Assembly (NCBI GenBank): GCA_947474635.1
Contig: CANJJB010000002.1
Span: 6,533-70,532, forward strand
DNA length: 64,000 nucleotides
Source of the DNA: Parachlamydiales bacterium
GTDB lineage: Bacteria; Chlamydiota; Chlamydiia; Chlamydiales; Rhabdochlamydiaceae
Direction of reading: 5' to 3'
Shown: piece by piece, positions 2,059-56,400 of the stretch
Position numbering within the stretch: position 1 is the first letter of the stretch
How the letters are laid out: each line of letters starts with the position of its first letter
Notes under the pieces: generated by a model
The model's input: the letters and a program-made list of their open reading frames with translations, nothing else
Told to the model about the DNA's origin: nothing
Databases searched by the model: none
Position numbers and translations under genes: made by a program

Positions 2059-3792
2059 TTATAATTTTTTTGTTAATTCGTATAGTTGTGTTCCTAGATC
2101 TCTTTTTTCTAGCTCTGTTAATCCTTTTATGTAGGCGTTGATCGTTAAGATTTTTTTTCCATTAATGTTGATTTTTTTTTGAAATTCGGGACCAAACTCT
2201 GTAGCTTCTTCTTCTGTACAATAATACTGTCCATCCGCTTTTTCATAATCTGCATAATGTTCAAAAACAAGTGTTTTTTCTTGCTCTAGGTTGATTATTC
2301 TTCTTGATAAATCACCTACTGTAATTTTATAGGTCGAGCAAAACCCATTGTCGTATAGTTTTTTGGCTAATTTGTTCATGATCTTGCTTTCTGCAACCTT
2401 GTATAGTTCGGTTGTCATGTTTAGTTCCCAAGTTTCTTGGTAATCAGCGTTTGTAATTGCTTGGTATGTGTTTAGAGGAAATAACCTTCTCATAGCGTTG
2501 AGCTCTTGATCGAAGACTGCAATGAAGAACTTATCTGTATCAGGTAGAGAGCGCTCAAGATCAGAGTCTCTAAAGGCTGGATGCTCCATGTCGATGATTC
2601 TTTCATAGAACTCATTTAAAAATTTTTTCATATCCTCATCCTTTTCCTCCTTCATGAGTTCTAAGACTCTATCTGAACATTGAATAAATGCTTTTCTCCA
2701 TTGCTCAGGGACACTATTAGCAAGTACGCTGTGATAAAAATCGTGGTAGATAAAATCGATAGCAAAGGGCGCTGACATTAAATCTGCCTTTTTAGGAAGT
2801 TTAACTCCAGGAAAGGGAAGAGCCATCTCCCGCGTGCTCTTAAGTCCATTTGCTCTAATATCTTCTCTTTCAGAGAGGCCAATGACAGGGGTAATTTGAA
2901 TGGTTGTCTTTTTTTCATGAGCCTCCAATAGGGCCTGCATCATGCCAAGAGAGGGGATCATCCGATATAACGCGCCCGAAGAAGAAAACTGGTGTAAAAC
3001 GTTAAAGTGCGCTAATTGGGTAATTACGCTACAAATGGTATCTTCATAATCTGCTAAAAACTCTTCTTTTGGCTTTCCGGTAGCATGAGCCTCCTCTTCT
3101 GCTCTTTTTTCGTCGAGCTTTGCTTTAGCATCAGAATAGGCATTTTGTGAAATATAGAGAAATGACTGTTCTGATTTAGGTTTTTTTCTCATTATGGCAA
3201 AAAATAGTTCTACCTGGGAATTCAGATTAGATATGTCACCCAGCTCATTTCCAATGGTTGCCATGATCCATTCTTTGACCTTTTGATTCGCTCTTCCATT
3301 TGCATCAAAAAGCGGCTGCACGACGATCTTGCCAGGAGGCAATTCGGAGAAGGCCGACCAATAGATCAAAAGCGTGCTAAATTGCTCGCCTGTTATCTTT
3401 AGATTGTCAGGAACTTCTTTAATTGTAGAATTGTGAAATGCTTGAAGAGCATATAGAGGAAGCATTTCCAAGGCATCTTTTTGCAATATTTTAGTCCAAT
3501 TTCCCTCAGAAAGATCTTGGCAGAGAGTTTCAATTTCTTTTTCTTTTCCTTCTGTCCGTTTTAATAATTCTTCACGCCCAGGCAAATAACGCGTAATGTG
3601 CTCAAAAGAATTGATATCGGTATTTTGCGAGGAGGCATTTAGGATCTCATGAGCGCTTGTTTCTATAGAATTTTGCAAAATAGGTAGTGCGACTGCATGA
3701 ATTTTATGGTCTTCGGGATTTAAATTAGAAGTGGGTGATGGCGTAGGAGTATGATTTTTTGCGAAATTAATATTAGGATCGAAATCTGACAT
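2059..3792 (-). CDS. hypothetical protein, 577 aa
   Basis: Long uninterrupted ORF. No signal peptide and no motif I recognise. Confidence 0.6.
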   Translation of the reverse strand: MSDFDPNINFAKNHTPTPSPTSNLNPEDHKIHAVALPILQNSIETSAHEILNASSQNTDINSFEHITRYLPGREELLKRTEGKEKEIETLCQDLSEGNWTKILQKDALEMLPLYALQAFHNSTIKEVPDNLKITGEQFSTLLIYWSAFSELPPGKIVVQPLFDANGRANQKVKEWIMATIGNELGDISNLNSQVELFFAIMRKKPKSEQSFLYISQNAYSDAKAKLDEKRAEEEAHATGKPKEEFLADYEDTICSVITQLAHFNVLHQFSSSGALYRMIPSLGMMQALLEAHEKKTTIQITPVIGLSEREDIRANGLKSTREMALPFPGVKLPKKADLMSAPFAIDFIYHDFYHSVLANSVPEQWRKAFIQCSDRVLELMKEEKDEDMKKFLNEFYERIIDMEHPAFRDSDLERSLPDTDKFFIAVFDQELNAMRRLFPLNTYQAITNADYQETWELNMTTELYKVAESKIMNKLAKKLYDNGFCSTYKITVGDLSRRIINLEQEKTLVFEHYADYEKADGQYYCTEEEATEFGPEFQKKININGKKILTINAYIKGLTELEKRDLGTQLYELTKKL

Positions 3793-8765: not shown

Positions 8766-8797
8766 ACTAGTCCTTGTTGCTCTGTTAAATTAGGATA

Positions 8798-8828
8798 AAT
8801 TTTACTCTAGATAATAAGTTTTTTACAA
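8798..8828 (-). promoter_or_regulatory. putative sigma70-like promoter for paralog A
   Basis: The minus strand reads TTGTAA-N19-TAAAAT about 30 nt upstream of the ATG. It lies within a block duplicated upstream of paralog B. Confidence 0.3.
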
Positions 8829-8915: not shown

Positions 8916-9566
8916 CTATTTTGAACAGATTGCGTAGTTTGCCATTTGAGCAACAACTCCTACTAAGAGTATTCCCAGTGCTTGTGCGGAAGCTTCATAA
9001 ATCTTTATGTTGTTAGCAAGCCCTATCGAAGGGCTTTTTCCCTCAGAGGCTGATTGCTGAGATCCTAGGTCCCTACTATGCCACACGGCTTTCACGTAAG
9101 CGACACCGTTTGGAAATTGGGAGATAGCTGCACTGCCTACTAGAGCTGCATAACCAAGAAGCGTGAATGGCATATTTAAAGAAGGTGCGTTTGTTGATAA
9201 CATTTTTGAGATTTGAGAAAACACTCCAATAGCTAGGCCTGTAGTTATGAAGACTTCATTCAGTTCATTAAAGCGTTTCGGAGAGTTTCCATTCGGGCCG
9301 TTTCCAGATATCAAATTGACTCCTATTCCCAAGGCTAACCCGCCTATTGTATAAGCAGAGCATTTTGCAAAAACAGTTAATATGCGTCCAGTCAACGCAA
9401 GACCCTCTGCTCCGAAAGCAATACCGCCTGCTGCTAAAGAACATGATTGGTTCCAAAGACCAGTTAAGCCTTGTCTAGTGAGCCTAAGACCGCTTGCTGT
9501 TAAAGAATATGCTCCATTTCCAAAAGCATGATACCCATTTCCTATAGATACTCTGATATTTTCCAT
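8916..9566 (-). CDS. Gly/Ala-rich multi-pass membrane protein, paralog B
   Basis: Start set at ATG 9566 (MENIRV, matching MENVTI of paralog A), with AGGAG at 9572-9576. See paralog A for the shared blocks. Confidence 0.6.
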   Translation of the reverse strand: MENIRVSIGNGYHAFGNGAYSLTASGLRLTRQGLTGLWNQSCSLAAGGIAFGAEGLALTGRILTVFAKCSAYTIGGLALGIGVNLISGNGPNGNSPKRFNELNEVFITTGLAIGVFSQISKMLSTNAPSLNMPFTLLGYAALVGSAAISQFPNGVAYVKAVWHSRDLGSQQSASEGKSPSIGLANNIKIYEASAQALGILLVGVVAQMANYAICSK

Positions 9567-9599
9567 AATAACTCCTATTTTTGTGTTCAATCAGGCTAA

Positions 9600-9629
9600 A
9601 TTTTACCCTAGGTAATAAGTTTTTTACAA
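9600..9629 (-). promoter_or_regulatory. putative sigma70-like promoter for paralog B
   Basis: The minus strand reads TTGTAA-N18-TAAAAT. The surrounding ~48 nt is about 80% identical to the region upstream of paralog A. Confidence 0.3.
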
Positions 9630-22204: not shown

Positions 22205-23083
22205 ATGAACTACTTCTGGAACAGGTTATTTGCCCGCTTTGTTGATTATGGGACGTTTTACCTATCGGGTATCCTTGTTTATCTGATGCTTCCCTTGGAA
22301 TGGGGAGAGTATTTCTATTGTTTCTTTGCTTTGGCTGTACCCTTCATTTGGCCTTTTATTGAAGCTATCCTGGTAAGCAGTAAGGGCAAGACCTTAGGTC
22401 AAAAAATGTTCGGCATGAAGATAGAAGATGGTAGGGGATCTACCCTTGCCTTCAAACAAGCTCTTCAGCGAGCTCTCTTTATAGGCAAGAGACCGGGTAT
22501 TATTAAGTTTAAACAGATTAACCGCTACCAGTACTTAGTCACTCTTTTTCTTGCAATAGCGTGCGTTTCTTCCTTGTTTTTAGGAGAAGAGATTTCAAAT
22601 GTTGCTGTTGAATATGAGCAAAATATGACAAAAGAAGGCTGGATTCAGTACTCTTCTAAAGATGAGCGCTTCACAGTGAACTTTCCTAAGAAGCCTGAGC
22701 ATGAAACCCTCTCATTTGATCTTCCTAACTCAGACAAATCTCTAGACTTGAAAGAAGTTAAAGCAGTAGCTGATGTTGAGTTTTCTGTAAGTTACGTAGA
22801 GCTTCCTAGAAAATGGCGTATCTTTAGCTCGACCACGCTTCTTAAAGGTGCTATGAATGTTGTCGTAGAGAACATGCCCGGTGCAAAAATCATGCAAAAA
22901 ACGCACATGAAGTATAAGAACTACCCTGGAATTGACTTCCACATGACCCAAAACGGCAATGAAATTGAAGGAAGATTGATCCTAGTGGGAAGCACTCTTT
23001 ATAAGCTCACTGTCACGCGCCCTCAAGAGATTGCACATGAGGTGCAGCACGAGGAGTTTCTTGATTCGTTTGATCTAAAGTAA
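22205..23083 (+). CDS. RDD-family membrane protein with unknown C-terminal domain
   Basis: N-terminal RDD-type TM domain (RLFARFVDY ... GKTLGQKMFGMKI). The C-terminal ~170 aa is soluble and unassigned. Confidence 0.65.
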   Translation: MNYFWNRLFARFVDYGTFYLSGILVYLMLPLEWGEYFYCFFALAVPFIWPFIEAILVSSKGKTLGQKMFGMKIEDGRGSTLAFKQALQRALFIGKRPGIIKFKQINRYQYLVTLFLAIACVSSLFLGEEISNVAVEYEQNMTKEGWIQYSSKDERFTVNFPKKPEHETLSFDLPNSDKSLDLKEVKAVADVEFSVSYVELPRKWRIFSSTTLLKGAMNVVVENMPGAKIMQKTHMKYKNYPGIDFHMTQNGNEIEGRLILVGSTLYKLTVTRPQEIAHEVQHEEFLDSFDLK

Positions 23084-23096
23084 GTCATTATTCTTG
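23069..23096. repeat. direct repeat, copy 1 (contains stop codons of the RDD gene and of hepT)
   Basis: TTTGATCTAAAGTAAGTCATTATTCTTG, identical to 23821-23848. Confidence 0.9.
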
Positions 23097-23435
23097 TTCT
23101 AGAACAGCAACAATTTGCTTGAGCTGCTCACATAAGGATGGCAGATAATCGCGGAGTGTTTTCCAAACAACATCATGATCAATATGGAAATAGGCATGGA
23201 TCAGGCGATTTCTCATTCCAGTGGTATCTTTCCATGGGATTTGAGGAAATCGCTTTTGTGTTTTGTTAGAAATTTTTCCAGCGGCTTCCCCTATAATTTC
23301 AAATTCCCTAACAACAGCTGACAGAAACTGCCTGTCTTTATCCAAATCGATTCTTTTTCTTCCTCGGGCAAAAGAAAGAATAGCTTGAGCAGAGTCAAGC
23401 ATATGTTTAAAGCGAATTAAATCTTTATTTTCCAT
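23088..23435 (-). CDS. hepT: HepT-like HEPN/DUF86 toxin
   Basis: 115 aa with HEPN motif R-x4-H-x-Y (RNRLIHAY). Confidence 0.85.
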   Translation of the reverse strand: MENKDLIRFKHMLDSAQAILSFARGRKRIDLDKDRQFLSAVVREFEIIGEAAGKISNKTQKRFPQIPWKDTTGMRNRLIHAYFHIDHDVVWKTLRDYLPSLCEQLKQIVAVLEQE

Positions 23436-23733
23436 AGATAGTGTATGCTTTTTCTAAGACGTCATTTCGGAAGAAAGGGCTTAAATCGTTCGGAGTTTTT
23501 AAATCGACTTTTCGCCCAATAATTTCGCCAAGTTCTGATTCAATACCTGCAAAGCTGAAAAGATGAGGAATGTGTTTTTTTTCAAATTTGACCAATATGT
23601 CTACGTCACTTTTCTCTGAAAAACTAGAAGTTAAAATAGATCCAAAAAGAGCCAAATAAACAATATGGTATCTTCTACAAAATTTTTCAATCTTACGCTT
23701 GTCCAAGCCGATGGGAATCTTTTTCACGAGCAT
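23425..23733 (-). CDS. mntA: MntA-like minimal nucleotidyltransferase antitoxin
   Basis: 102 aa with LFGS...SDVDILV nucleotidyltransferase motif. Overlaps the hepT start by 11 nt. Confidence 0.85.
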   Translation of the reverse strand: MLVKKIPIGLDKRKIEKFCRRYHIVYLALFGSILTSSFSEKSDVDILVKFEKKHIPHLFSFAGIESELGEIIGRKVDLKTPNDLSPFFRNDVLEKAYTIYGK

Positions 23734-23820
23734 ACCTCTTTTTTCATTTTAATGGTCCCTCCTTGACTAAGTCAAGAAGTTTGACGTTAGTTCCAAAGGC
23801 GGATGCATTGCTTTCTTAAC

Positions 23821-23848
23821 TTTGATCTAAAGTAAGTCATTATTCTTG
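23821..23848. repeat. direct repeat, copy 2 (relic of the RDD gene 3' end)
   Basis: Identical 28-mer. The preceding bases CTTTCTTAAC resemble TTTCTTGATTCG before copy 1, apart from a 3-nt indel. Confidence 0.9.
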
Positions 23849-23905: not shown

Positions 23906-24907
23906 GTGCATAATAAAACTGCTACTTTTATTGCTGTGCTTCTGCCTTTTTTTAGTTTGACTGGCTCTGCAGGGGAGTCGCCTGTGTTTGTTTACCAAGA
24001 TGAAGTAGCTCATATAAAACTTGAAAATTTTGATGATCTCTTTGTTGGTAATCCTGTAGACATAGAAAAAAATCTTCAAGCGCTTCTTCCACAGGCAGAG
24101 GCGTTGACAGATAAGTCCATCTACCTCCAAATTTTATCCCAGATAGCTCTTACTCAAGCTCTCCAAAAAAACTTTCAAGCCGCACATGAAACCCTTGATG
24201 CGGCAGAAGGGTTATTAGTTCCCGAATATACTCTTGCTAGAGTGCGGATTTTATGCGAGCGGGGCAGGGTATTTATGCAGTCGGGGAATAATTTAGCTGC
24301 CAGAACATGTTTCGAGCAGTCATTTGAGCTCAGCTCAAGACATCAGTTTGATGCTCATACTATTAATGCAGCTCACATGATCCCATTTGTAATTGTGCCA
24401 GTGGAAGAAAAAATTAAGTGGAATGAACGTGCTATTGAGATGGCTGAAGGCTCGCAACTTGCAAAAGCGCGTCTTTGGAAAGGCTCTCTTTATAATAATT
24501 TAGGCCAAGCTTATCTCGAGTCAAAACAATACGAAAAAGCGCTGCCTGTTTTTAAAAAAGCGCAGGCCTTCCGTGAAGAAGAAGGCTACATTCCCAACAT
24601 TCGGGTGGCTAAGTGGGCTGTAGCACGCACATTGCGGTTTCTTAATTCTACTGAAGAGGCATTAGATATCTTGCTAGCGCTAAATGAGGAATACGATGTC
24701 TTGATAAAATCAGGTAAACTAGATATGCCAGAAGAGATGCTTCTTTATGCCCATGGCCTTCTGCAAGAAGAAATCGCAGAAATCTATTCTACAAAAGCAA
24801 AGACGTTTTCAGGACGTGCCTATGAAGCGCTTTCTCAAAATGAATGGATCAAGAAACTGGATCCTAAGAAGTTGGAGCGTTTAAAACAGCTCAAGGAATC
24901 GGACTGA
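23906..24907 (+). CDS. secreted TPR-repeat protein
   Basis: GTG start, signal-like N-terminus (TATFIAVLLPFFSLTGSAG), and TPR-like helical pairs (for example GSLYNNLGQAYLESKQYEKALPVFKKA). Confidence 0.65.
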   Translation: MHNKTATFIAVLLPFFSLTGSAGESPVFVYQDEVAHIKLENFDDLFVGNPVDIEKNLQALLPQAEALTDKSIYLQILSQIALTQALQKNFQAAHETLDAAEGLLVPEYTLARVRILCERGRVFMQSGNNLAARTCFEQSFELSSRHQFDAHTINAAHMIPFVIVPVEEKIKWNERAIEMAEGSQLAKARLWKGSLYNNLGQAYLESKQYEKALPVFKKAQAFREEEGYIPNIRVAKWAVARTLRFLNSTEEALDILLALNEEYDVLIKSGKLDMPEEMLLYAHGLLQEEIAEIYSTKAKTFSGRAYEALSQNEWIKKLDPKKLERLKQLKESD

Positions 24908-52038: not shown

Positions 52039-52130
52039 GTAATGAATTGTTCTGCCTAAAATAACATAAGAGACATTTTATGTGTTAAAAAAAATAAATT
52101 TCCAATATATCAATAATTTGTCTATGGAGC

Positions 52131-52222
52131 TCCTCACGGAATTGAAAAAACACGATTCCGTGAGGAATATTTGGGGTGCAATTGCTCCTCATGGAAATGC
52201 ATTTTTGCAATTCCGTGAGGAG
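52131..52222. repeat. two tandem hairpins built from four copies of one 12-13-mer (CTCCTCACGGAAT)
   Basis: Copies at 52131-52142 (+), 52155-52166 (inverted), 52185-52198 (+, variant) and 52210-52222 (inverted). Confidence 0.55.
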
Positions 52223-52248
52223 GCCTATAGATAAAATTCTGCTCAATC

Positions 52249-52281
52249 AGTGATTCTTATTCCATTTGAAAGAGAGCTTGG
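52249..52281. repeat. direct repeat copy A: relic of the tamB 3' end (encodes ..KLSFKWNKNH-stop on the minus strand)
   Basis: 30 of 33 positions are identical to 53452-53484. All three differences are transitions. Confidence 0.85.
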
Positions 52282-52289
52282 GGAAAAAA

Positions 52290-53336
52290 TCAGGCCAGGC
52301 GCTTCAGCCTGTAATGGGCAGCTTTTTTAATTCCTTCTTGCGTAATGATCCCTTTTTCTATGAGATCTGCAAGATCTCTTTGTAAAGAACGTCTATTTAT
52401 TCCTGGGCAAAGTGCTTCATAGTCTTGAATGTTAAAATCTTTTTCTTTTGTCATCAGGCTTTCTAATACCTGTTTTTGCCTTTTAGAAAGCTTGTGCTGA
52501 AGCACTAGAACATCTAGTTGCATAGCTTGTGATCCTTTGAGTTGGATTTCATGCATTTGGGTTTCTAACGCTTTGCAGAAATATTCAAGCCAGCTTGTCA
52601 TATCCATGTTGCTGTTTCTAACGGATTGGAGCGCATGGTAGTAATCTTGTCTATTCCGGTCATAGTATTGGCTAATGGTGAAAAGCTTTTTAAAATCATA
52701 GCCTGAACGATAAAGACACAAGGTGGAAAGAAGACGGGAGGTCCTGCCGTTTCCATCGACAAAGGGGTGGATGTGGACGAGCTGAAACTGCGCTATTCCA
52801 GCAGCAAGAACGGGAGGAATTGTTTGTTCATTTTGGAGCCAATCCGTGAGTTCAGTCATCAGAAGAGGTACGTCATAAGGTGCGGGCGGGGTGTAGATGA
52901 TTTCTTTGGTTTTTGAGTTAGCGACATAATTTTGAATCGTTCTGTATTGCCCTGGCTGCGCTGTATTACCCCTTACTCCTTCCACTAAGCGTCTATGAAT
53001 TTCCCTAATCAAGCCTTCGGTGATCGTCCCCCTAGAGAAGACATAGTCCGCAACAAAATCAAAAGCCTTTTTATAGTTGAGTAGTTCTTTTACATCTTCA
53101 GAATCAACATCTGACATTTTTTCGCCTGAAATGAGTCTTTCAGACTGGTCCAGGCTTAACTGCGTGCCTTCTATGTGTGTTGTGTGATGGGCTTCCAAAA
53201 TTAATGCACGAGCTTGCATTTTGGATATCCAGTCTTTTGAAAGGGTTGCTGCTTCCAAAAAACCACGTGTGCGCTCAATGGCAGTAAGGGCCGATGCTAT
53301 GGGGATAGAAATAGTGAATTTAGGCTCAAAAGACAT
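52290..53336 (-). CDS. Fic-domain protein (AMPylase-type) with N-terminal inhibitory-type motif
   Basis: Fic motif [12 protein letters not shown], upstream T-x3-E-G motif (TTHIEG), and a winged-helix-like C-terminus. Confidence 0.9.
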
Positions 53337-53340
53337 GGTT

Positions 53341-53446
53341 TTACGACACTTTTTTCTTTATTATGTCATAAAAGGCTATATCGAGCAATTTTTTTACGAC
53401 ATTTTATGACATTTTTTACGACAAAATTTCTGGAAATGTGTCGTAA
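53341..53446. promoter_or_regulatory. array of six TTA[CT]GACA boxes upstream of the Fic gene
   Basis: TTACGACA at 53341, 53394 and 53416. TTATGACA at 53404. Inverted copies TGTCATAA at 53364 and TGTCGTAA at 53439. Confidence 0.4.
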
Positions 53447-53449
53447 AAG

Positions 53450-56400
53450 CTAGTAATTCTTATTCCATTTGAGAGAGAACTTGGCTTGCTCATCTTCTTG
53501 GGTTTCTGCTTGGAGAACAAAGCCATTTTTGAGTTCGACTTCGACGAGGACATGGCTGGTTTCTGTGCCTTGTGAAAGAGTGATCATGACGCCTTTGGTG
53601 AGGTACTTACCGATTTGGACGGTAAACTGATTCGAGTCGCCAGAAGGGGAGCTGATGTTGAGGCGGTCAACGCCGATGCTTTTACGGATCATCTCAAAGA
53701 CGTTGGGGCCTGAGTTGCCAGAGAGTGAGACAATGGAGTAGGCAAGCTGCGCTGCTTGGAGGGCGCTGAGTTCTGAGACGTCTTTATTAAAGAGGATTCT
53801 AGCTAGTATAGAGCTTGTTGGCATAGAGGGGCTAGATTGGAGTGTGAGTAGGGGAGCGTTTAGCGGACCGCGGAGGAGTGCTGTGACAGTCATTTCGGGA
53901 AGTACTAGCGTGCCAGATAAGTTCAGGTAGGCGCTGGGTGTAGGGGAGTTTATAAAACTTAAGGCGCCCTGGTTTAAGGTAAAATCTTTGCCTGAAAAAG
54001 AAAATGTTCCCTTGATGAGGTTAAGACTACCTTCTCCTTCTATAGAGAGGTTTTTCCCTTTGATGATGAGATCACCCTGGAGCTCTGCATTTAAACCTCT
54101 TCCTGAGAGAAAGATGTGTCCGGGGGCGTGGAAAATGAGATCGTAATAGAAGGGGTAATCACGTTGAGATGTGGGCCTGATTTTACTGACATGAGGAGGC
54201 TTATTGATGTACTCAAAAGGAAGAACGGGAAGATCGATAGGGAGTTCATCAGGTATTTCAATCTGAGCTTTTTTCAAAGTGACTTCCCCTTTAGCAAGTG
54301 TGCTCTCTGTGCTACCGGAAAGAGAAACAGGTCCTGAAAATAAACCAGAGAGCCAGTTCAGATGTAAGACGTTTAAATGGTCGATGTTGAAATCAAAGGA
54401 GAAGGGTATTTTTGGAGCGCAGGCAACAGTTCCTGTACCAGTAAGAGTTCCTTTATCTTGATCGGTTGCTGTAATGGAGGTGATTTTAATGTCGCTACCT
54501 TGTGCTATTCCTTCTAAATAGATCTCTTTTAAGAACATGCCTGTGAAATAGTTTTCATAGGAGCCATTTTGAATGTTGAGAGTGCCTTGGGTGAGGGGGG
54601 TGTTGAAGTTATTGGATAAAAGGAGGTGGCAAGAGAGAAGGCCTGTTGTTGAGTGACTTCCAATGTTGATGAAATCAAAAATTTCTTCCAAGTGCCCTTC
54701 CATGGTAAGCTCTGCCCAGAGGGGTTTTATCCGGTCAATACCAAAACGGAGGGGATAAAAGTTGTACACGATGGGAGCTGTCCCGGTAATTTCAAAAAAC
54801 TGATCGCCCGAGGCTTTAAAATTGCCATGCACTTGCATGATATTCTGATCGATGTTGATTTGCAAAGCGCCTTTGCTGTGTATGGGCACTTTTTTGCCGG
54901 ACTGCAATATGTCTGCTTTTTCCAGAAGGATGTTAGCTCTTCCGGTAAGAGCCTCTTGCGAGCCGTCGATAGAAATGTCTAGAGAGGAGTTGCCTTGGAG
55001 CGTAAATTTGGAAGTCGTAAGGGTTAAGAGGTCGATGGGGAAGTGCTCTGCTTTGACTCTGATTTTTGAGACTGTAGGATTTAAATCAAGTGAAGCTAAA
55101 AAATAACCCCCTTTTAGCTTTAGATCAAACTCTGACATGACAAGCGCTTTGTCACTTAGCTGAATAGAAAAAGGTTTTTGTAGCTCAAAGGATTTTTTCA
55201 GGATGGTGCCCTTGAGGTAATCACATTGGACATCAAAAAAGGGTCTTGCGATATAGAAAGATCCAGAAGATACGCACTCAAAAGGCTCTTTCCATAGGCC
55301 CTTTGCAGAAAAGTCAAAGGTTGATCTCTCTTGCGTTAGATGCGTGGAAAACTCAAATTGATCAAATAAAAACTGTTTAAAGTAGGTATTTTGCCCCTCT
55401 AAGGTAAGCTCTCCACGGGGGTTGTTGAAAAGATCTATAGCTGTAGCTGTTATATTCATTTGAGAAGAGAGAAGATCGTAGCATCGGAGGTTTTGAGTAA
55501 GGCCATAAAAAGAGGTGCTAGGGCCTGTAAAAGAAAGCGATCCTGCTAAAGAGCCTTGGAGCTGAGAGTCTGGAAAAAATAGCTCTAAAGGGGAGAGGTC
55601 TTGTGCTCTTACAAAAAAAGAGCCTTCTACCGACTTATCAGATATTAACAAAGTAGCGTCGCCGGCTATTTGAGATGTCGCAACCATTAATGAGAGGTCC
55701 TTGACTTGGAAACTACTGTCTTGCGCAAAAGAAAAGAGCGTATTTAGTTTGATAGGAGCAGATGTATGAGGCGCATCCCAGTCAAGTTCTCCATTCCACA
55801 TATTATCATTAAGAAGTGCCTGCAGTTTTCCTTTGGGGAGGTGATAAGAAGCTGAGGAGATTTTCAGTTCATTGCTTTCAAATGTGCAAGAGAGGTTGCT
55901 TTTTGTATACGCAACTTCTCCTGTTAAAATCCCGCCAAGTAGCGGAGAAAAATAAGAGAGGTGGGGAAGAAGAAAAGAGGCGGAAGCGCTCTTAGGCGCA
56001 AAATGCTCATTAAAACTTCCCTCTCCTTTGAAACAAACAAGATCACTTTTCAAAGAGATGTGGTGGACATCCAGAGCTCTGCCAGGAAAAAAAGAGAGCC
56101 ATGCTTCAAAAGTTCCTGCCAAGTCTCTACCGTCTATGGAGCGCAGCTGAGATTTAATAGAGGCTTTAATAGGAAGAGAGGAAAAGCTCTGCCAAGGTCC
56201 TTCAAATGCTATATCCACGGCAAAAGAGGCTTCGAAAGGAAAAACATAGAAAGGAGATAAGGCTTCTTTTGATTTTACATCTGCTTTGATAAATCCGGAG
56301 AGAGTATCTGCTCTCTTTTGCCCTTCGATATGGGATGTGAGCATAAGTTCTGATGAGGTAAGACCTGCTTCTATGGAAAAAGCCTTCCCTTTCTTTTTAA

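Follow-up and report, generated by a model that had tools for sequence, protein, structure and literature searches.

Gene Content and Direct Repeats Behind the RDD Gene

We studied a HepT-MntA toxin-antitoxin (TA) gene pair that is bracketed by short direct repeats in the genome of a bacterium of the Parachlamydiales (Rhabdochlamydiaceae; NCBI GenBank assembly GCA_947474635.1). The DNA analyzed, referred to here as the window, is a stretch of 64,000 nucleotides (nt) of contig CANJJB010000002.1 (positions 6,533 to 70,532 of the forward strand), and coordinates given without a contig name are those of the window. The pair lies next to a plus-strand gene for an RDD-family membrane protein (22205-23083; 292 amino acids [aa]; PF06271, E-value 1.4e-11), whose orthologues are 86-74% identical; by the names of their sources, the closest RDD proteins place the genome in the Rhabdochlamydiaceae. 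On the minus strand, hepT (23088-23435) encodes a toxin of 115 aa, a HEPN RNase with the motif RNRLIH (PF01934, E-value 4.8e-24), and mntA (23425-23733), positioned just upstream of hepT and overlapping it by 11 nt, encodes an antitoxin of 102 aa, an MNT nucleotidyltransferase with a GS..DVD signature (PF18765, E-value 1.6e-13; PF01909, E-value 8.3e-13). A putative promoter precedes both genes on the same strand (23746-23775; 10/12 matches), with the -35 box TTGACT at 23775-23770, an 18-nt spacer and a -10 box TAAAAT ending at 23746.

The 28-mer TTTGATCTAAAGTAAGTCATTATTCTTG is present at 23069-23096 and again, without a single difference, at 23821-23848, a spacing of 752 bp. Scanning the window with up to three mismatches allowed revealed no third match, the expectation by chance was 0 (100 shuffles), and the copy number in the entire genome (1.64 Mb on 82 contigs) is two, which rules out that the 28-mer is a common dispersed repeat. 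The first copy contains the final four codons of the RDD gene (FDLK) followed by its stop codon (23081-23083) and, on the minus strand, the last two codons and the stop codon of hepT (23088-23096). The second copy, which is non-coding, follows TTTCTTAAC (23812-23820), and the first copy follows TTTCTTGATTCG, so that the two gene tails read FLN-FDLK-stop and FLDSFDLK-stop, respectively. When this degenerate extension of 9-12 nt is counted, the repeat is about 37-43 nt long. The 724 nt between the repeats have a GC content of 36.9%, compared with 41.4% for the window; they include 39 nt of filler (23782-23820) between the cassette and the second copy, the last 9 nt of which are the degenerate RDD codons. 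The repeat pair with its period, the gene ends in the first copy, the degraded tail before a non-coding second copy and an interval holding exactly the two TA genes had all been described in an earlier, sequence-only reading; each was recovered by our searches of the window and the genome, the open reading frames (ORFs) and Pfam, together with the promoter-like site.

Both repeats are found in five further assemblies (ENA MEGAHIT contigs, a Logan contig, and an NCBI metagenome-assembled genome [MAG]), and contigs from four lake metagenome runs span both junctions; the runs that contain this genome are freshwater lake metagenomes. Reproduction of the arrangement in these assemblies excludes a one-off misassembly. 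With at least 99.96% identity to the window, they represent the same population rather than independent strains, and in our search for close strains lacking the insert every assembly with the exact HepT belonged to this one population.

The Cassette and Its Relatives

The Rx4-6H motif of HepT (R75-N-R-L-I-H80) is invariant in an alignment of 27 homologues, and the GSx10DxD motif of MntA is present as FGSILTSSFSEKSDVD (GSx10DVD). Since both proteins keep their catalytic motifs, the pair looks, as far as its sequence tells, like a working type VII TA system. In such systems, MntA neutralizes the RNase HepT by AMPylation, and HepT on its own is toxic (PMC7641770). The pair shares its combination of domains, gene order, gene overlap, both motifs and size with the HepT-MntA systems described by Yao et al. 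(2020; PMC7641770); the proteins are ordinary, and the novelty lies in their genomic footprint.

Other metagenome contigs encode HepT proteins that are 86-87% identical to the one studied here, each with its MntA, at four unrelated locations. Alignment with the cassettes at L048, L051, L052, and L053 delimits the mobile unit proper (23092-23781, minus strand; about 85% identical), which extends from AACTTCTTGACT to ...CTAGAACAAGA. Homology begins with AACTTCTTGACT at the -35 box (~23781), a box kept in all four relatives, and ends with ...CTAGA(A/G)CAAGA at the final hepT codon; outside these bounds all copies diverge, and the terminal HepT residues vary accordingly. The end of the cassette coincides on that strand with the start of the repeat in a microhomology of 5 nt (CAAGA, 23092-23096). 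More distant cassettes from five related genomes have the coding sequence alone in common. We found neither terminal inverted repeats at the ends of the insert nor a palindromic or attC-like element at either cassette boundary. Among the ~85%-identical cassettes there is no shared att site; their repeats differ from locus to locus.

The sequence-only reading had proposed to look for other copies of the 752-bp unit. Such cassettes exist at the four sites in other contigs, and this genome contains no second one; the search returned only a distant, orphan mntA gene on contig C38 (C38:7683-7976; L017). Its HepT partner has been lost, while the genome of the sister species in the same genus (G001) retains the partner at the orthologous place (C1:91630-92182; L016); the C38 gene is an orphan antitoxin left after deletion of the toxin. 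Two of the cassette relatives (L048:100-315; L052:1-60 and 820-860) lie beside GTTCGAATCTCTCCACCTCCA, which resembles the 3' end of a tRNA gene and in L052 is the flanking repeat itself; ARAGORN calls no tRNA at either site.

The RDD Locus in Related Genomes

In G001, the RDD gene is directly followed by a convergent gene for a 198-aa protein, tdk, and tgt, and no TA pair is present. Two further lineages (L026 and L054), with RDD proteins 77% and 75% identical to that of the window, have the same gene order with overlapping tails of the RDD gene and the 198-aa gene, again with no TA pair. Because the RDD gene thus abuts the 198-aa gene in three lineages of the Rhabdochlamydiaceae, the TA pair is an insertion, and these TA-free relatives support the proposal of the sequence-only reading that a cassette entered at the end of a gene and duplicated its target. 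No cassette was found beside the RDD gene in another lineage when the four closest cassettes and six RDD lineages were inspected.

The relatives also lack, at this locus, the gene that follows the second repeat copy in the window, which encodes a 333-aa TPR protein (23906-24907, plus strand); both the TA pair and the TPR gene were therefore gained in this lineage. As flanking repeats are missing from the TPR gene, it is a separate gain, which probably preceded the arrival of the TA cassette. Its homologues (at most 71% identical) are scattered among Parachlamydiaceae, Wolbachia, Babeliales, and Dependentiae, and the gene looks like one that is exchanged among intracellular bacteria.

The RDD proteins of the relatives mostly end in FLNSFDLK plus one to five residues; that of this genome and of G001 has FLDSFDLK. 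Only the first 11 nt of the 28-mer align with G001.

The Same Footprint Around Other HepT-MntA Pairs and Other Genes

Repeats of this kind flank other HepT-MntA pairs as well. G011, from another genus, has a homologous pair flanked by repeats of 29 nt (26/29 identical) that sit in the tails of two convergent genes. At L052, repeats of about 29 nt (about 25/29 identical, 16 nt of them perfect) enclose the pair. A different HepT-MntA pair in G001 forms an insert of 726 nt between perfect 46-nt repeats, the first of which overlaps the 3' end of a gene; the genome studied here has the empty site, with an overlap of 51 nt between the two alignments. The repeats at these separate pairs are all different in sequence and all local. 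The G001 pair (C1:493491-494308; L081-L082) corresponds to C35:3149-3199 and 3591-3697 in our genome, and contig C35 contains a 107-nt remnant of mntA, 77.6% identical, on the far side of the adjacent 151-aa gene. This suggests that the G001 pair was shifted locally by ~450 bp, or was duplicated and then differentially lost.

When the genome was compared with itself, direct repeats of 20-95 nt proved to bracket many units of a single gene. A gene for a MYND-finger protein, inserted behind a gene for a 350-aa protein, has a perfect repeat of 25 nt with a diverged extension. The repeat around an intergenic Bro-N gene consists of 29 perfect nt and a diverged extension of 25 nt. A gene for a 373-aa protein beside a tRNA-Pro gene is flanked by a 20-nt repeat that covers the tRNA from the T-loop to the 3' end. 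G001 has the empty site for each of these three genes, and the repeat occurs once at the relative's empty site for the G001 TA, MYND, Bro-N, and tRNA-Pro cassettes. The same genome scan yielded local repeats at C16:23204-24030, C13:2734-3671, C22:8742-9780, and C60:1403-2930, one of which is a terminator hairpin duplicated on either side of a flavin-reductase-like gene; the remaining local repeats are adjacent effector-like paralogues with a common 5' leader and common first codons (MTDK, MASPINP, MQPIN).

Within the window, the sequence-only reading had pointed to a recurrence of the architecture at a fic gene at 52.2-53.5 kb, and this holds. The gene (52290-53336, minus strand; 348 aa; PF02661, E-value 1.6e-21) has its own operator repeats and lies upstream of a displaced remnant of a tamB tail (52249-52281, minus strand; KLSFKWNKNH-stop). 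The repeat partner of this remnant is the functional tail of the TamB-family gene itself (53452-53484, minus strand; KFSLKWNKNY-stop), and the flanking repeat amounts to 33 nt at 91% identity (33-35 nt). All relatives keep the tail KFSLKWNKNY-stop, from which the remnant differs by five transitions, and the remnant is followed by the terminator hairpin that directly trails the gene in G001. Relatives of the Fic cassette, with 77% and 74% nucleotide identity, reside at other sites in two other genera. The slot behind the tamB stop codon is a recurrent landing site: it holds fic in our genome (window 52039-53449), three other ORFs in G001 (L037:1150-3406), and a 472-aa ORF in G002 (L038:934-2554). 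A tail remnant in this slot is present in our genome only. Elsewhere in the window, a 46-nt direct repeat (8783-8828 and 9584-9629; 89% identical) surrounds a 224-aa ORF (8916-9590, minus strand), a region in which G001 has unrelated sequence instead; this ORF may be another such cassette.

Frequency of Repeat-Flanked HepT Loci

We surveyed 80 HepT loci on contigs chosen as one genome per species. Chlamydiota contributed about 20 of these loci and many different phyla the remainder; 74 loci were testable. Exact direct repeats of at least 18 nt bracketed the pair in 12 of the 74, or about one in six, a set that was scored on the flanking repeats. Windows shifted within the same loci gave 4/275 (odds ratio 13, p = 3e-6), and neighboring gene units anchored at ORF ends gave 2/94 (odds ratio 8.9, p = 0.001). 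At several of the positive loci the repeats are as long as 50-100 nt or more and take in the upstream gene's tail, and one repeat-flanked locus is from the archaeon Methanoperedens. One or two of the 12 positives (L150, L169) are tandem paralogues or duplicated terminators and not target duplications.

Gene gain in this genus was also assessed by an unbiased comparison of lineage-specific insertions and deletions (indels) of at least 300 bp against 752 kb of G001, with the same threshold for exact repeats (at least 18 nt). The comparison yielded 49 and 30 such indels in the two lineages, and flanking repeats are present at about 10-15% of them.

Search for a Recombinase

The insert holds only hepT and mntA; neither in it nor beside it did we find a gene for an integrase, a transposase, or another mobile-element protein. 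That no recombinase is visible in the window, as the sequence-only reading had stated, remains correct, and the genome search adds only two Xer-like tyrosine recombinases (PF00589), which are taken to be XerC and XerD. Serine recombinases (PF00239) are missing from the genome assembly, which is 87% complete.

An insertion sequence (IS) with long target duplications does occur in G001. It encodes a 288-aa integrase-core-like transposase, has terminal inverted repeats (GTTAGCCCAAAATGATAATGTCC...) and target duplications of 19 and 18 nt, and is present in at least five copies (C1:581315-582814, 701898-703395, and near 58400, 339725, and 560842). We rejected it as a mobilizer of the cassettes, as it is missing from our genome and its duplication is fixed at 18-19 nt.

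Mosaic Structure of the Repeats

At the TA, MYND, Bro-N, and G001 TA cassettes, the perfect block of the repeat is adjoined by a homologous stretch that is 25-40% diverged and that always faces the insert. All seven differences in the 54-nt Bro-N repeat fall into one half of 25 nt, and in the MYND repeat at least nine differences are confined to 21 of 46 nt. It is the outer copy at the MYND locus that is orthologous to G001; the end of the gene is now supplied by the inner copy, the more diverged of the two. A longer duplication that decayed uniformly is a poor fit to these data, since the differences are clustered, albeit in small numbers.

The perfect identity of the repeats at the RDD locus had been taken as a sign of a recent event. 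The identity over 28 nt stands, and the dating is weaker than it was stated to be, because 28 nt make a short clock and because the repeat is a mosaic. The perfect block may mark a tract of recombination or gene conversion rather than the age of the insertion.

Origin of the Insertion

We propose that a HepT-MntA cassette of ~690 bp, together with the 39-nt filler, was inserted behind the RDD gene by a joining process of the host that left a long target duplication, and we put the probability of this reading at roughly 60%. The insertion would have occurred between the RDD gene and the downstream sequence after the split from the sister species, and it would have duplicated a target of 28 nt, or ~37-43 nt if the degenerate extension was part of it. 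The RDD gene would have remained intact because the duplicated stretch spans its stop codon. From a cassette that carries neither a recombinase nor terminal inverted repeats nor a conserved att site we infer that the ends were joined by DNA repair or recombination of the host, for which the route might have been joining through microhomology or template switching, the filling of a break with a long stagger, or one crossover with a circular copy that bears a target-like stretch. Inserts flanked by repeats are inherently deletable through recombination between the copies, and we propose that they are encountered preferentially around addiction modules, as loss of the module would kill or harm the cell.

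Several observations weigh against this proposal. No genome in the collections has the exact empty site, in which the RDD gene is followed by the sequence from 23849 onward. The check for an empty site that had been suggested earlier was therefore borne out in part: in three lineages the RDD gene and the conserved gene after it adjoin each other, a TA pair being absent, and the exact junction was not recovered because the TPR gene itself is missing from all relatives. An approach through the TPR homologues also failed, the best of these being only 71% identical and located in other bacteria. The target duplication at the RDD locus is consequently deduced from the RDD tail and by analogy with the other loci. 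A perfect core with a diverged extension is also unlike what a simple duplication followed by uniform decay would leave, and the mosaic calls for an additional step, either recombination with a diverged copy of the target or gene conversion. At tRNA-Pro, the repeat of 20 nt has the exact look of a classical integrase att core. Moreover, the genome is an incomplete MAG and binning loses mobile DNA, so that a recombinase acting in trans is possible. The occurrence of repeats at some 10-15% of the indels makes this a minority route of gene gain. Joints expected from excision or deletion were not seen in the lake metagenomes, where the Logan contigs, at only 3-10x coverage, are uninformative on this point.

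The mosaic is what a different mode of arrival would produce, in which a circle, excised elsewhere through recombination between its flanking repeats, carried one RDD-tail-like repeat from a related lineage and entered by a single, Campbell-type homologous crossover within the 28 identical bases. Such spread is compatible with insertion by host joining, of which it would be a later step in the same life cycle; the two differ on how the copy at the RDD locus arrived. A single crossover accounts for a layout that runs from native flank through perfect core and degenerate inner edge to the insert, and from there through degenerate inner edge and perfect core to native flank. FLDS ahead of the first copy and FLN ahead of the second agree with this layout, the G001 TA insert shows it on its two inner edges, and the MYND and Bro-N repeats do likewise, including a MYND locus where the gene uses the diverged inner copy and the outer one is orthologous to G001. 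The N of the remnant, moreover, matches most RDD orthologues, while D is found in this genus. Against these points stands the lack of any lineage with the cassette next to the RDD gene, the four closest cassettes being located elsewhere; the stretches that diverge measure only 9-25 nt, which keeps the counts small, and gene conversion in the center of older repeats would produce the same mosaic. The minimal homology for RecA-dependent exchange in Escherichia coli places 28 nt near the lower limit, which also speaks against a crossover in this block. We consider arrival by this route unlikely, and with stretches this short the mosaic as a signature of a single crossover is a lead.

A tyrosine integrase supplied in trans could also have acted, with the 28-mer as att core and the TA pair as what remains, in cis-mobilizable form, of a larger island. 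Integrases classically target the 3' ends of genes and of tRNAs, the repeat at tRNA-Pro covers precisely the T-loop through the 3' end, the slot behind tamB resembles a hotspot with different cargo in three species, and the MAG is incomplete. The two Xer-like genes are the only candidates found, however, and homologous cassettes have wholly different repeats and targets with nothing in common outside the genes. Repeat lengths range from 15 to ~100 nt, and two islands would have had to decay independently to ~725 nt (724 nt here and 726 nt in G001) by coincidence. We therefore regard an integrase in trans as improbable.

Still less credible is a local rearrangement, i.e., a tandem duplication of a TA-bearing segment followed by complementary losses, with the repeats as duplication boundaries. 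It draws on the G001 TA pair, which lies ~450 bp from the position of the 107-nt mntA remnant in our genome with one gene between them, but none of the relatives has a TA pair near the RDD gene and the genome contains no second copy of the unit, which makes this explanation very improbable. An assembly artefact or a chance repeat, for which it may be said that the genome is a metagenome-assembled bin and that 28 equals k-1 for k = 29, can practically be dismissed, given the identical arrangement in MEGAHIT k141, Logan, and scaffold assemblies, the contigs of four runs across both junctions, older cases of the same architecture that are imperfect, unlike assembler products, and a chance expectation of 0.

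Comparison With Known Systems

Insertion with long target duplications of variable length has been reported for restriction-modification (RM) systems (Nobusato et al., 2000, Gene 259:99; Furuta, Abe & Kobayashi, 2010, PMC2853133). Some of these repeats overlap gene 3' ends, such as a 46-bp repeat over 15 bp of HI0105, and the authors suggested that the process depends on a common property of RM systems such as DNA breakage (PMC2853133). They also envisaged a cycle in which insertion is followed by amplification and then release, the last step being without evidence (PMC2853133; reviewed in PMC3874152). The cassettes described here resemble the RM cases in that a small addiction-type unit with no recombinase is bracketed by genome-unique direct repeats of variable length that often overlap the 3' end of a gene; as with the RM systems, the repeat is single at the relative's empty site for the G001 TA, MYND, Bro-N, and tRNA-Pro cassettes. 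They differ in their cargo, a TA pair whose toxin is an RNase and does not cut DNA, in the mosaic structure of their repeats, and in their obligate intracellular host. Measured against the criterion of Furuta et al. (unique and >30 bp), the repeat at the RDD locus is unique, its perfect part of 28 nt lies just below the 30-bp cut-off of these authors, and with the extension it reaches 37-43 nt.

We conclude that the RDD locus is best read as an insertion of this known type, and that it extends the type to cargo unable to cut DNA. Since HepT is an RNase and the MYND, Bro-N, and Fic genes share the footprint, DNA cleavage by the cargo is not the cause, which points to a process of the host. The reason why the footprint is sighted around addiction modules may lie in selection against their loss.

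Other types of mobile DNA provide partial parallels. Phage 21 and the element e14 in icd, as well as islands that target tRNA genes, restore the 3' end of the gene into which they integrate, and cis-mobilizable elements (CIMEs) are derivatives of such islands that lack the integrase. The cassettes share with them a duplicated gene tail that brackets the insert, with the gene-side tail functional and the other copy a displaced remnant; unlike them, they have no integrase, no att site common to homologous cassettes, and inserts below 1 kb. Integron cassettes and the pdif modules of Acinetobacter, which depend on XerC/D, often carry TA pairs, and pdif sites are 28 bp long. Like the units in our genome, these are single-operon cassettes, often for TA pairs, with short repeats as bounds. 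The repeats that we describe are nevertheless direct, locus-specific copies of the target rather than attC palindromes or inverted dif-like sites, and no intI gene is present. From IS elements and miniature inverted-repeat transposable elements the cassettes are set apart by the lack of terminal inverted repeats and by repeats that vary in length from 15 to ~100 nt. Our literature search found no report of repeat-flanked HepT-MntA or other TA pairs with this footprint.

A broader view, tentative and on present evidence doubtful, is that HepT-MntA pairs, and probably Fic-type addiction modules too, are recombinase-less mobile elements of bacteria and archaea with a cycle of three steps: insertion accompanied by a long duplication of the target, excision of a circle when the repeats recombine, and return to the matching site in related genomes through one crossover. 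The third step would have left the mosaics behind, and addiction would keep the unstable, repeat-flanked state in place.

How TA systems travel when no plasmid, phage or transposon carries them has long been asked, and the loci described here are natural examples with defined ends, empty sites and microhomology. The recombinase-less footprint appears common for the HepT family across bacteria, at about one in six loci. If the enrichment holds, the idea would be testable in laboratory strains, and annotation pipelines could recognize small islands of this kind that carry no recombinase.

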